Positions 12,665 through 22,239 of a DNA stretch of 30,752 bases are shown here, piece by piece. Position 1 is the first letter of the stretch. Each line of letters begins with the position of its first letter. The notes below the pieces were generated by a model. It was not told where the DNA came from. It ran no database searches and saw only the letters and a list, made by a program, of their open reading frames with translations. The stretch comes from Escherichia coli (GTDB lineage Bacteria; Pseudomonadota; Gammaproteobacteria; Enterobacterales; Enterobacteriaceae): assembly GCF_003334315.1 (NCBI RefSeq), contig NZ_QOWR01000055.1. The stretch is one strand, 5' to 3'. Both the position numbers and the translations under genes were made by a program.

Positions 12665-12994
12665 ATGTTTAACCGACCGAACCGCAACGACGTTGATGAT
12701 GGCGTGCAGGATATCCAGAATGATGTCAATCAATTAGCTGACAGCCTCGAATCTGTATTGAAGTCCTGGGGCAGCGACGCCAAAGGGGAAGCTGAAGCCG
12801 CACGCAGTAAAGCTCAGGCATTGCTGAAAGAAACCAGGGCGCGAATGCATGGTCGTACTCGCGTCCAGCAAGCCGCGCGCGATGCCGTTGGCTGCGCGGA
12901 TTCTTTTGTTCGTGAAAGACCCTGGTGTAGCGTGGGTACAGCAGCTGCGGTAGGTATTTTTATCGGCGCACTGTTAAGCATGCGCAAATCGTAG
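12665..12994 (+). CDS. ygaM: ElaB/YqjD-family membrane-anchored ribosome-associated protein YgaM
   Basis: ORF 12653..12994; I prefer the ATG at 12665 (MFNRPNRNDVDD..., 109 aa), but 12653 is possible. C-terminal transmembrane anchor (GTAAAVGIFIGALL). Confidence 0.85.
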   Translation: MFNRPNRNDVDDGVQDIQNDVNQLADSLESVLKSWGSDAKGEAEAARSKAQALLKETRARMHGRTRVQQAARDAVGCADSFVRERPWCSVGTAAAVGIFIGALLSMRKS

Positions 12995-13025
12995 TGCAAA
13001 AATGATAATAAATACGCGTCTTTGA

Positions 13026-13056
13026 CCCCGAAGCCTGTCTTCGGGGTTTCTTTTTG
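13026..13056 (+). terminator. Rho-independent terminator downstream of ygaM
   Basis: Stem ccccgaag (13026..13033) / cttcgggg (13039..13046), loop cctgt, followed by tttctttttg. Confidence 0.7.
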
Positions 13057-13109
13057 CCTGGTGAATCACAAAAATCCCCCTACCCCGTCACGCTCATATC
13101 CAGGGTAAT

Positions 13110-13241
13110 TTCGACCACTATTTGCTATATATTGTGTGGTTGAATCTTTTTTCAACTACATCTAGTATCTCTGTATCAACAGAGAGACAACCCGACGCGT
13201 ATCATCGCGCCGTATCTTCATTTTAAACGGAAATACGAATC
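13110..13241 (+). promoter_or_regulatory. nrdHIEF promoter region with candidate NrdR/Fur operator sequences
   Basis: AT-rich tract ctatatattgtgtgg (about 13125..13139) and actacatctagtatct resemble NrdR-box/Fur-box like repeats; inverted repeat tctctg-N6-cagaga at 13168..13185. Regulation by Fur and NrdR is established knowledge for this operon; exact sites here are inferred. Confidence 0.35.
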
Positions 13242-13487
13242 ATGCGCATTACTATTTACACTCGTAACGATTGCGTTCAGTGCCACGCCACCAAACGGGC
13301 GATGGAAAACCGGGGCTTTGATTTTGAAATGATTAATGTCGATCGCGTTCCTGAAGCGGCAGAAGCGTTGCGTGCTCAGGGCTTTCGTCAGTTGCCGGTA
13401 GTGATTGCTGGCGATCTTAGCTGGTCTGGTTTCCGTCCGGACATGATTAACCGTCTGCATCCAGCGCCACACGCGGCCAGTGCATGA
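13242..13487 (+). CDS. nrdH: Glutaredoxin-like protein NrdH
   Basis: 81-aa ORF with redox motif CVQC ([18 protein letters not shown]...). Confidence 0.95.
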
Positions 13488-13891
13488 GCCAGCTCGTCTA
13501 CTTCTCCAGCAGCTCCGAAAACACGCAGCGTTTTATCGAACGTTTAGGTCTGCCCGCGGTGCGCATCCCGCTCAATGAGCGGGAACGGATTCAGGTAGAC
13601 GAGCCTTACATCCTGATCGTGCCCTCTTACGGCGGCGGTACGGCTGGCGCGGTGCCACGACAGGTAATTCGCTTTTTAAACGACGAGCACAACCGGGCGT
13701 TGCTTCGCGGCGTTATTGCTTCTGGTAATCGCAACTTTGGTGAGGCGTATGGCCGCGCCGGAGATGTGATTGCCCGGAAATGCGGCGTGCCGTGGCTGTA
13801 CCGTTTTGAACTCATGGGTACGCAAAGCGATATCGAAAACGTTCGTAAAGGAGTAACCGAATTTTGGCAACGACAACCGCAGAATGCCTGA
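13484..13891 (+). CDS. nrdI: Flavodoxin-like protein NrdI
   Basis: 135-aa ORF; start ATG overlaps nrdH stop (ATGA at 13484..13487). Confidence 0.93.
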
Positions 13892-16008
13892 CGCAGGAAA
13901 CGATGGATTACCACGCGCTGAATGCGATGCTTAACCTCTACGATAGCGCAGGTCGCATTCAGTTCGATAAAGACCGCCAGGCCGTTGACGCCTTTATTGC
14001 GACGCATGTGCCTCCGAACAGTGTGACCTTCAGTAGCCAGCAGCAGCGCCTGAACTGGCTGGTCAACGAAGGTTACTATGATGAAAGCGTTCTTAATCGC
14101 TACTCTCGCGACTTTGTCATTACGCTGTTTGCCCACGCACACACCAGCGGTTTTCGTTTCCAGACATTCCTCGGGGCATGGAAGTTTTACACCAGCTATA
14201 CGTTGAAGACATTCGACGGTAAACGTTATCTGGAAGATTTTGCCGATCGAGTAACGATGGTGGCGCTGACGCTGGCACAAGGCGATGAGACGCTGGCGTT
14301 GCAACTGACCGATGAAATGCTGTCAGGACGCTTTCAGCCAGCCACGCCAACATTCCTCAACTGCGGTAAGCAGCAGCGCGGCGAACTGGTTTCCTGTTTT
14401 TTGCTGCGTATTGAAGACAATATGGAGTCGATTGGTCGGGCGGTAAATTCCGCACTGCAGCTGTCGAAACGCGGCGGCGGCGTAGCATTTTTGCTGTCGA
14501 ATCTGCGAGAAGCGGGCGCGCCAATTAAACGTATTGAAAATCAATCTTCTGGCGTAATTCCGGTGATGAAAATGCTGGAAGACGCATTTTCCTATGCCAA
14601 CCAACTCGGCGCTCGTCAGGGGGCTGGTGCAGTCTATTTACATGCTCATCATCCCGATATTCTGCGTTTTCTCGACACGAAACGGGAAAATGCCGACGAA
14701 AAAATCCGCATTAAAACACTGTCGCTTGGCGTGGTGATCCCGGATATCACTTTCCATCTGGCAAAAGAGAATGCGCAGATGGCGCTGTTTTCGCCTTATG
14801 ACGTAGAGCGAGTTTATGGCAAGCCGTTTGCCGATGTGGCCATCAGCCAACACTATGACGAACTGGTTGCCGATGAACGCATTCGCAAAAAATACCTCAA
14901 CGCCCGTGATTTCTTCCAGCGACTGGCAGAAATCCAGTTTGAGTCCGGCTATCCCTACATCATGTATGAAGACACGGTAAACCGTGCTAACCCTATCGCC
15001 GGGCGCATAAATATGAGTAATCTCTGCTCAGAAATTTTGCAGGTTAACAGCGCCTCAGAGTATGACGAGAATCTCGACTATACCCGCACAGGCCATGATA
15101 TTTCCTGCAATTTAGGTTCGTTGAATATTGCGCACACCATGGATTCCCCCGATTTTGCCCGCACGGTAGAGACTGCCGTGCGCGGTTTAACGGCAGTATC
15201 AGATATGAGTCATATCCGCAGCGTGCCGTCCATCGAAGCCGGAAATGCCGCCTCGCACGCCATCGGACTGGGGCAGATGAATTTACACGGCTATCTGGCG
15301 CGAGAAGGCATCGCTTATGGTTCGCCGGAAGCACTGGATTTCACCAATCTCTATTTCTATGCCATCACCTGGCATGCACTGCGTACCTCGATGTTGCTGG
15401 CACGCGAACGCGGTGAAACCTTCGCCGGGTTCAAACAGTCACGCTATGCCAGTGGTGAATATTTTAGCCAATATCTGCAAGGGAACTGGCAGCCGAAAAC
15501 GGCGAAAGTTGGCGAACTGTTTACCCGTAGCGGTATTACGTTACCTACCCGTGAGATGTGGGCGCAGCTGCGCGACGACGTGATGCGCTACGGCATATAC
15601 AACCAGAATCTTCAGGCGGTGCCGCCAACCGGTTCTATCTCTTATATCAACCATGCTACGTCGAGTATTCATCCGATTGTGGCGAAAGTAGAGATACGCA
15701 AAGAGGGCAAAACAGGACGCGTTTACTACCCTGCCCCGTTTATGACTAACGAGAATCTGGCGCTGTATCAGGACGCTTACGAAATTGGCGCAGAAAAGAT
15801 CATCGACACCTACGCGGAAGCGACTCGCCATGTCGATCAGGGGCTGTCGCTGACGCTTTTTTTCCCCGATACCGCCACCACTCGCGATATCAACAAAGCG
15901 CAGATTTACGCCTGGCGCAAGGGTATCAAAACGCTCTATTACATCCGCCTGCGTCAGATGGCGCTGGAAGGCACTGAAATTGAAGGCTGCGTCTCCTGTG
16001 CACTTTAA
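13864..16008 (+). CDS. nrdE: Class Ib ribonucleoside-diphosphate reductase alpha subunit
   Basis: 714-aa ORF, ribonucleotide reductase large subunit with C-terminal CxxC-type tail (CVSCAL); overlaps nrdI by 28 nt. Confidence 0.96.
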
Positions 16009-22116: not shown

Positions 22117-22239
22117 GCAATCAGCAACCGTTTTCGTGGCTTTACACTTATAAGGGTGTTAAGAAGCCCATCAGTCTGATAAGGTTAAGATATTCATTCA
22201 GTCTATTTATAATATTAACAATCGTTAAGCGTACACTCT

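Follow-up and report, generated by a model that had tools for sequence, protein, structure and literature searches.

The segment 13122–13168 of the window (the whole 30,752-nt stretch of Escherichia coli DNA analysed here) is, with a probability that we put at roughly 0.88, the operator through which NrdR controls the sigma-70 promoter of nrdHIEF, the operon for the backup ribonucleotide reductase (RNR) of E. coli, with Fur control of that operon exerted outside both of its AT-rich motifs. The preliminary description had flagged 13110–13241, directly upstream of nrdHIEF, as a cluster of candidate NrdR and Fur operators, pointing to two AT-rich repeat motifs and an inverted repeat and to the known control of the operon by iron through Fur and by NrdR. 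That regulation agrees with published data, both in the membership of the operon in the core Fur regulon and in the binding of NrdR. The motifs also lie where they had been placed (ctatatattgtgtgg at 13125–13139 and actacatctagtatct at 13155–13170), and the NrdR control proposed for the region is borne out at both, as they form the cores of two experimentally validated NrdR boxes. Of their description as AT-rich repeats, the AT-rich cores stand, but the motifs do not simply repeat each other, each being an imperfect version of one 16-bp palindromic box.

The window derives from the chromosome of an E. coli strain other than MG1655 that shares its local gene arrangement, with a ygaM–nrdH junction of the K-12 type (Table 1). 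Between 12900 and 13500 it shows no difference from MG1655, to which the whole window is ~99% identical (~1% differences, outside the operator), and the 351 bases round the flagged site were matched in 5,422 of 5,426 complete E. coli genomes, with ygaM and nrdH as the features beneath them. Open reading frames and the MG1655 annotation give the gene order ygaM (ending at 12994), a 247-bp intergenic region, nrdH, nrdI, nrdE, nrdF and proVWX. Downstream of ygaM, the terminator scan returned an intrinsic terminator with 10 pairs and a T-run, which the repeat finder registered as a perfect 9-bp inverted repeat. The junction itself varies: the query matched in two pieces in 1,389 of the 5,422 genomes (about a quarter), and these carry pdxR and a gene of the carboxymuconolactone decarboxylase family between ygaM and nrdH. 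For orthologs, 80 loci were collected, each from a species representative within the Enterobacteriaceae; 41 of them carry the pdxR/decarboxylase pair, and in about 37 ygaM lies directly beside nrdH. The insertion is an old, recurrent presence/absence polymorphism, the boundary of which adjoins the NrdR operator, and NrdR box 1 differs at three positions between K-12-type and pdxR-type E. coli (TTCCCATATCTTGTGT in the latter). Conservation figures given below come from phylogenetic footprinting of the 75 non-Escherichia loci and pairing figures from 78 distinct orthologous 5′ regions, whereas 82 sequences were examined for box pairs.

Table 1. Features of the ygaM–nrdH junction, in window coordinates.
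Feature	Position	Strand	Basis
19-mer AAAAATGATAATAAATACG with a strong match to the Fur consensus, outside the flagged interval, after the ygaM stop codon and before the ygaM terminator	12998–13016	+	consensus, PWM
ygaM intrinsic terminator, GACCCCGAAG-loop-CTTCGGGGTT then TCTTTTT	13024–13048	+	terminator scan, repeat finder
Upstream Fur ChIP-exo peak P87 (MG1655)	13090–13124	.	mapped published peak
Putative IscR type II activator site, sharing bases with NrdR box 1 and with the 5′ part of the −35 hexamer	13119–13143	.	literature statement
NrdR box 1, TTGCTATATATTGTGT, just before the −35 hexamer	13122–13137	.	published probe, PWM, orthologs
TTGAAT, −35 hexamer of the nrdH promoter (sigma-70), within the 15-bp linker that separates the NrdR boxes	13140–13145	+	conservation, spacing
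NrdR box 2, CAACTACATCTAGTAT, its last six bases being the −10 hexamer TAGTAT	13153–13168	.	published probe, PWM, orthologs
−10 hexamer TAGTAT, end of NrdR box 2	13163–13168	+	invariant in orthologs
Inverted repeat tctctg-N6-cagaga, centred on the predicted start	13168–13185	.	repeat finder
Predicted transcription start, 7 nt after the −10 hexamer, giving a 67-nt 5′ UTR	13175	+	conserved −35/−10 pair
GC-rich 5′-UTR hairpin CGACGCG-TATCAT-CGCGCCG, arms 13193–13199/13206–13212	13193–13212	+	conservation
Hyper-conserved block (Shine-Dalgarno GGAA 13229–13232, ATG 13242, codons 2–7); candidate proximal Fur operator and/or translation-initiation element	13220–13262	+	conservation
Central Fur ChIP-exo peak P88 (MG1655), on the nrdH start codon; P89 at 13250–13258	13240–13269	.	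mapped published peak
nrdH, first gene of nrdHIEF	13242–13487	+	ORF, annotation

The limits of the two NrdR boxes follow from a published probe. The nrdHIEF 57-mer occurs once in the window, at 13117–13173, with zero mismatches, and given its design (5-nt flank, 16-bp box, 15-bp linker, 16-bp box, 5-nt flank; PMC12176259) the two boxes fall at the positions listed in Table 1. E. coli NrdR binds this probe with a KD of 138 nM in the presence of ATP plus dATP and does not bind it with ATP alone (PMC12176259). Both checks that had been proposed, a matrix scan and an alignment of orthologous upstream regions, came out in favour of NrdR. A position weight matrix (PWM) trained on nrdAB and nrdDG boxes only, to avoid circularity, was used to score 30,737 positions of the window and placed box 1 first (12.45 bits) and box 2 third (11.75 bits); the best pair in the window is box 1 with box 2 at 31-bp spacing, at 24.2 bits versus 16.0 for the runner-up. 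The best pair likewise has a spacing of exactly 31 bp in 82/82 orthologs, with box 1 starting 118–122 nt before the ATG, and mean identity across the 75 non-Escherichia loci is 0.78 for box 1 (≥0.9 at its core positions) and 0.96 for box 2. Known NrdR operators have linkers of 15–16 bp and thus start-to-start distances of 31–32 bp, equal to whole helical turns, and box pairs with this spacing occur in E. coli only at three nrd operons. The element in the window, with its boxes 74–120 bp upstream of the nrdH ATG, combines two palindromes of the gammaproteobacterial NrdR-box pattern with helical-turn spacing, overlap with a core promoter upstream of an RNR operon, and conservation. The identity of both motifs as NrdR boxes is far beyond chance.

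This is the same element as the NrdR operator of E. coli K-12 nrdHIEF, from which it shows no difference (PMC12176259). The operators of E. coli nrdAB (boxes 1 and 2) and nrdDG are likewise made of 16-bp palindromes with a central AT and a 15-bp linker, overlap the core promoter and bind NrdR with similar affinity (113–160 nM; PMC12176259). They differ from nrdHIEF in layout, as it is in nrdHIEF that the boxes flank the −35 hexamer and that box 2 carries the −10 hexamer, and in their partner regulators, which are Fur and IscR at nrdHIEF, DnaA, Fis and H-NS at nrdAB, and FNR at nrdDG. Salmonella Typhimurium nrdHIEF has the same pair of boxes, with the NrdR2 box overlapping the −10 hexamer, and is under repression by Fur as well as by NrdR (Panosa et al. 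2010, PMC2892513); the NrdR boxes of two Salmonella loci in our set (L014 and L027) are nearly identical to those of the window. Derepression of 25–50-fold has been reported for an nrdR mutant. In Salmonella, mutation of box 1 derepresses the operon as much as deletion of nrdR does, and mutation of box 2 produces no derepression (PMC2892513), a point against the present reading as far as the in vivo contribution of the single boxes goes.

The promoter lies within this operator. Its hexamers, TTGAAT and TAGTAT, are separated by 17 bp; TAGTAT is invariant (100%) and GGTTGAA is ≥90% conserved across the 75 non-Escherichia loci, and the pair has 8/12 matches, just under the threshold of a generic promoter scan. 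The only match of the generic sigma-70 scan, TCAACA-18-TATCAT (13176–13205), was rejected, given that its −10 is the variable loop of a hairpin. Because the −35/−10 pair is conserved, transcription probably starts at ~13175. At the S. enterica locus L014, the best Fur 19-mer ends 309 nt upstream of the position equivalent to 13175, which is the distance of the published Fur box "at −309" and is thus consistent with a start at ~13175. The same core promoter may be shared with IscR: apo-IscR is reported to act as an activator of nrdHIEF through a type II site that includes the −35 hexamer (attributed to Martin & Imlay 2011), and the only placement compatible with this is the putative one at ~13119–13143. 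Type II sites have symmetric CCxYA half-sites 7 bp apart and AT-rich flanks. The sequence at 13123–13139 departs from the core motif CCNYA-N7-TRNGG at 2 of the 8 specified positions, a fit no better than chance (328 observed versus 323 expected); most orthologs and pdxR-type E. coli come closer, with 1 mismatch (for example, TCCCATATCTTGTATGG).

The two 16-bp boxes, 31 bp apart start to start (three helical turns), flank the −35 hexamer, with the −10 hexamer held in box 2. In the mechanism that we propose, when dATP is plentiful, an NrdR tetramer carrying ATP and dATP would sit on both boxes and block RNA polymerase, and NrdR with ATP alone, which does not bind the DNA, would leave the operon derepressed. 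Binding of NrdR to exactly the sequence 13117–13173 has been demonstrated in published work, and occlusion of both hexamers is its likely mode of action. apo-IscR would activate from the site overlapping box 1 and the −35 hexamer. Fur would act outside both NrdR motifs; its cross-links are found reproducibly at ~13230–13269, over the ribosome-binding site and first codons of nrdH, and, in MG1655, also at 13090–13124 just upstream of box 1.

Regulation of the operon by Fur is well documented. Across nine E. coli strains, both nrdH and nrdI are members of the core Fur regulon, and in fur mutants of the nine strains nrdH, nrdI, nrdE and nrdF are upregulated by log2 3–8 (PMC10164565); Fur dependence of nrdHIEF is also seen in promoter-lacZ reporter and western blot data. 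The position of the Fur site is another matter. We built a Fur PWM from 22 sites in 11 classical MG1655 Fur promoters (training scores, 13.1–23.5 bits), leaving out fec because the fecI/fecR ChIP-exo peaks lie outside the expected promoter. In contrast to the outcome for NrdR, the matrix gave no match at or above its 99th percentile between 13023 and 13222, and the best match to the 19-bp Fur consensus inside 13110–13241 was 10–11/19, which is background. Within the flagged interval, therefore, matrix matches and conservation were found for NrdR, whereas no Fur match rose above threshold. Weak Fur matches (2.2–5.9 bits) begin at 13223 and recur in a 6-bp register (13223, 13229, 13235, 13241 and 13247), straddling the 3′ end of the interval; by predicted occupancy this cluster at the ribosome-binding site (RBS) ranks 1,690 of 30,692, and such a score is reached by 14% of AT-matched windows, so it is not significant alone.

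Published Fur ChIP-exo data place Fur at the two ends of the interval. The MG1655 peaks listed for nrdH are 2798593–2798627, 2798743–2798772 and 2798753–2798761 (PMC10164565). Coordinates rather than gene labels were used, as the labels of the MG1655 sheet are partly shifted by one row, and U00096.2 numbering equals NC_000913.3 minus 1978 at this position. The csrB peak falls inside csrB only under U00096.2 numbering, which sets the nrdH start, 2798745, at window position 13242 and the three peaks at the positions given in Table 1. P87 overlaps the flagged interval by 15 nt, at its 5′ edge, and NrdR box 1 by 3 nt. Single Fur peaks were recorded in W3110 (+8 to +20 relative to nrdH), CFT073 (+2 to +14) and BL21(DE3) (+1 to +13). 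Narrow central peaks lie within about 10–20 bp of the PWM boxes at fhuA, sufA, ydiE, feoA, fepD-entS, fepB-entC and fhuF, and wider satellite peaks 100–250 bp from true boxes are common (the listed ryhB peak is ~120 bp from its box); peak positions are therefore not footprints, and the upstream peak at 13090–13124 could itself be such a satellite. Where the Fur signal is reproducible is on the RBS and nrdH codons 1–7, immediately 3′ of the flagged interval; the locus is occupied, but the peaks called do not place Fur on the two AT-rich motifs. Of the Fur operator that had been proposed for 13110–13241, the regulation thus holds but a box in the body of the interval does not, ChIP-exo signal being confined to the two ends.

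The region under the central peak is also unusually conserved. Mean identity across genera is 0.91 for 13220–13241 and 0.96 for 13242–13262, and among orthologs that share the amino acid, codon identity stands at 0.90–1.00 for codons 2–7 and at ~0.3–0.7 from codon 8 (Mann-Whitney p = 2.5e-4). This conservation of synonymous sites indicates that about 43 bp are constrained beyond coding, under the Fur summit. One tentative reading is that the block is the principal Fur operator, lying downstream of the transcription start and acting as a roadblock or through a loop to the 13090–13124 contact, with about 147 bp (14 helical turns) from centre to centre; Fur would be placed downstream of the start because the promoter core is already taken up by NrdR and IscR. 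Classical Fur operators (fhuA, fepA-fes, fepD-entS, sufA, ryhB and cirA) share with nrdH the repression by Fur, the ChIP-exo occupancy and the 6-bp register of hexamer arrays. However, they score 13–23 bits and lie over the −35/−10 hexamers, whereas the occupied region of nrdH reaches at most 5.9 bits (training sites, ≥13.1), spans +55 to +95 and covers the RBS and start codon, and the nrdH promoter core, unlike theirs, is taken by NrdR. Fur dependence and occupancy are published; the exact contacts of Fur, and the way in which it would repress from +55 to +95, are inferred. To place a Fur operator there is reasonable, yet unproven, with constraint at the level of translation as its main alternative.

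Under that alternative, which we also hold to be possible rather than probable, the block and the 5′-UTR hairpin would serve control at the translation or mRNA level (through ribosome loading, mRNA stability or an unspecified sRNA or protein) and cross-linking of Fur would be incidental. The block coincides with the footprint of a ribosome on the initiation region, the synonymous constraint is limited to codons 2–7 and the Fur PWM signal at the block is weak, all of which fit such a role. The hairpin, too, is retained in a way that fits: its arms have identities of 0.84 and 0.87 and its loop 0.43, and 79.6% of cells are paired among the 78 sequences, with 21 U·G wobbles that would pair on the sense strand only and few CG-to-UA or GC swaps. 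Its pairs are mostly just conserved, with few double changes; two pairs of loci (L041/L076 and L049/L083) have other sequences in the same hairpin shape. If the block is instead the Fur operator, the hairpin may belong to the same post-initiation control. Against a purely translational role, initiation regions usually constrain structure or composition and not the exact sequence across genera, the Fur summit falls exactly at the block in four strains and 23/75 orthologs reach ≥10 bits with the Fur PWM there. Structure searches gave little to go with it: Rfam at permissive E-values returned no family match and only sub-threshold noise for the 5′ UTR, RNAalifold on 78 distinct 5′ UTRs found no consensus structure, and the minimum free energy (MFE) of 13175–13290 was not unusual against shuffled controls (z = +0.79). 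Two further structures were considered and set aside, namely an attenuator formed by the hairpin and the T-rich stretch downstream of it, which does not satisfy the T-run terminator rule on the + strand, and a pairing of 13207–13219 with the SD/AUG seen in the MFE fold, of which CGUAU/AUACG and the GCGC at codon 2 are not kept in orthologs.

A functional Fur operator at the 5′ edge of the interval (~13104–13124), corresponding to the "Fur box" of older literature, is somewhat more doubtful. It would overlap NrdR box 1 and the IscR site, so that Fur would compete with IscR or with contacts of the RNA polymerase alpha-subunit. P87 of MG1655 maps to this edge, the literature octamer occurs at the homologous place in the pdxR-type locus L001 (2478–2485), and pdxR-type strains have a weak box, CGTAATCAATCTAAAATTC, at the homologous position, where 26/75 orthologs also show a weak PWM match. 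Yet 13104–13122 (GGTAATTTCGACCACTATT) matches the Fur consensus at 11/19, which is background, and falls short of the PWM's 99th percentile; no other part of the promoter is conserved so poorly (mean identity, 0.42); peaks as wide as P87 are often satellites; and the other strains examined have a single Fur peak on the start codon and none at this edge.

By sequence, the strongest Fur candidate near nrdH is the 19-mer at 12998–13016, which matches the consensus at 13/19 and scores 16.4 bits with the PWM (second in the window, and a score that falls among those of genuine sites). At a K-12-type junction it could be the real Fur operator, acting from about −170 as the Salmonella box does from −309; mutation of that far-upstream Salmonella box abolishes both repression and the band shift (PMC2892513). 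The validated Salmonella site lies 309 bp upstream of the start (PMC2892513), in a region with extra upstream genes, a segment that the window lacks because ygaM abuts nrdH. No ChIP-exo peak was called on 12998–13016 in MG1655, and the box precedes the ygaM terminator and lacks conservation in other genera, even where ygaM adjoins nrdH. In pdxR-type strains it stays by ygaM, 2.1 kb from nrdH (501–519 of L001), but in CFT073, in which the decarboxylase gene is directly upstream of nrdH, both the Fur peak on nrdH and Fur-dependent expression persist. Its role as the nrdH operator is thus doubtful; it is probably not the one used, and we consider it unlikely that Fur acts from there.

The inverted repeat that the preliminary description had reported is present (13168–13173/13180–13185) and extends to 7 perfect bp (13168–13174/13179–13185), or 10 with one mismatch, but its proposed standing as a regulatory element does not survive comparison with chance and with orthologs. 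Shuffles of the 132-nt region contain a 6-bp inverted repeat (3–10-nt loop) in 19.5% and a 7-bp repeat in 6.1% of cases, and in orthologs the arms have identities of 0.50 and 0.44, with 41% of cells paired among the 78 distinct 5′ regions. As the repeat is centred on the predicted start at 13175, the mRNA would hold only its right arm and could form no stem. It is most likely a chance, Escherichia-specific feature without function; that a further regulator uses it as an operator, or that it functions as a stem-loop, is very improbable, for all that its 7 perfect bp in E. coli are centred on the predicted start and that changes in E. albertii keep or lengthen it (TCTCTCTG-GTAA-CAGAGAGA), given a chance frequency of 6–20%, the poor conservation outside Escherichia and a left arm that lies upstream of the start site.

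The reading that we favour, an NrdR operator at 13122–13168 with Fur acting outside it, concerns an element that is already known: the NrdR part in full (predicted, mutated and measured on this exact sequence) and the Fur and IscR parts in outline. The NrdR operator of E. coli K-12 nrdHIEF is said to go back to Rodionov & Gelfand 2005 and Torrents et al. 2007. The analysis provides an annotation map that states which bases are NrdR boxes and which are promoter hexamers, and it indicates that a "Fur box" is not to be sought among the AT-rich motifs. Of some value beyond this is the position of the only reproducible in vivo Fur signal, on the unusually conserved RBS/start-codon block downstream of the start site; an operator there, if true, would represent an atypical geometry for Fur.

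Among 5,422 E. coli genomes, 1,389 carry a pair of genes, pdxR and a carboxymuconolactone-decarboxylase-family gene, between ygaM and nrdH; the same interval holds this pair in 41 of 80 enterobacterial species loci. The pair is a presence/absence polymorphism, and the window carries the short form of the junction, in which ygaM adjoins nrdH. The sequences of the two forms diverge from approximately 13088 to 13131 and, because of this divergence, NrdR box 1 differs between them at three positions (TTGCTATATATTGTGT versus TTCCCATATCTTGTGT), with NrdR pair scores of 23.9 and 19.0 bits, respectively. The K-12-type junction segment is closer to some Citrobacter sequences than to the other E. coli type. 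The source of the window is not MG1655: the two differ by about 1% across 20 kb, the window's nrdI lacks one codon of the MG1655 length, and the sequence upstream of stpA is offset by 1 nt relative to the MG1655 comparison locus (regions concerned, 13484–13891 and 10040–11015).

Features of the window discussed in the text, with the orthologous interval of the junction (L001, an E. coli locus of pdxR type)
Feature	Position	Sequence	Score or basis
ygaM–nrdH junction polymorphism	13060–13131; L001 500–2520		Genome and locus comparison
Imperfect 10-bp inverted repeat	13135–13160	TGTGGTTGAA / TTCAACTACA	Repeat search
GC-rich hairpin, nrdH leader	13193–13212		
Consensus-like Fur box	12998–13016	AAAAATGATAATAAATACG	16.4 bits, Fur matrix
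Top Fur matrix match of the entire window	546–564	GATATTGATTAACATTAAC	16/19, 18.5 bits
Single NrdR-box-like sequence, inside nrdE	14415–14430	AGACAATATGGAGTCG	12.0 bits, rank 2
Single NrdR-box-like sequence	22200–22215	AGTCTATTTATAATAT	10.3 bits

Two Fur-box-like sequences were found away from the operator. The consensus-like box is squeezed between the stop codon and the terminator of ygaM, and keeps its place by ygaM even in strains in which nrdH is 2 kb away; no ChIP-exo peak was called on it among the published Fur peaks. The top match falls within the ygaQ pseudogene, and the ChIP-exo list has no peak at that position either. Gene labels in the MG1655 sheet of the published table (PMC10164565, supplementary Dataset 2) are row-shifted in places (for example, peak 1309033 is tagged acnA, and the 'fhuF' peak lies approximately 10 kb from fhuF), and we therefore relied on coordinates rather than labels. 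The PWM scan of the window revealed no second box at 31–32 bp from either of the single NrdR-box-like sequences, which are probably chance occurrences.

Within the operator, the inverted repeat runs from the end of box 1 through the −35 element into the start of box 2, and the linker between the NrdR boxes is thus partly symmetric; the motif GGTTGAA in this linker is at least 90% conserved among orthologs. Upstream of the operator, in most orthologs (region aligned to 13076–13100; loci L009–L083), a C-rich tract precedes a stem-loop of variable sequence in which pairing is kept (for example, CCCCGCGG...CCGCGGGG and CCCTCGCTG...CAGCGGGGG), of which the window retains only the 5′ part, CCCCCTACCCCG.

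The hairpin of the nrdH leader has conserved arms and a variable loop, with U·G wobbles on the sense strand and a few compensatory changes among its variants. A T-rich stretch lies 3′ of the hairpin, which matched no known family in Rfam. Further downstream, the ribosome-binding site, start codon and codons 2–7 of nrdH (13220–13262) are near-invariant between genera, synonymous positions included, with codon identity of 0.90–1.00 up to codon 7 and a sharp fall at codon 8. This conserved block is the position of the Fur ChIP-exo summit.
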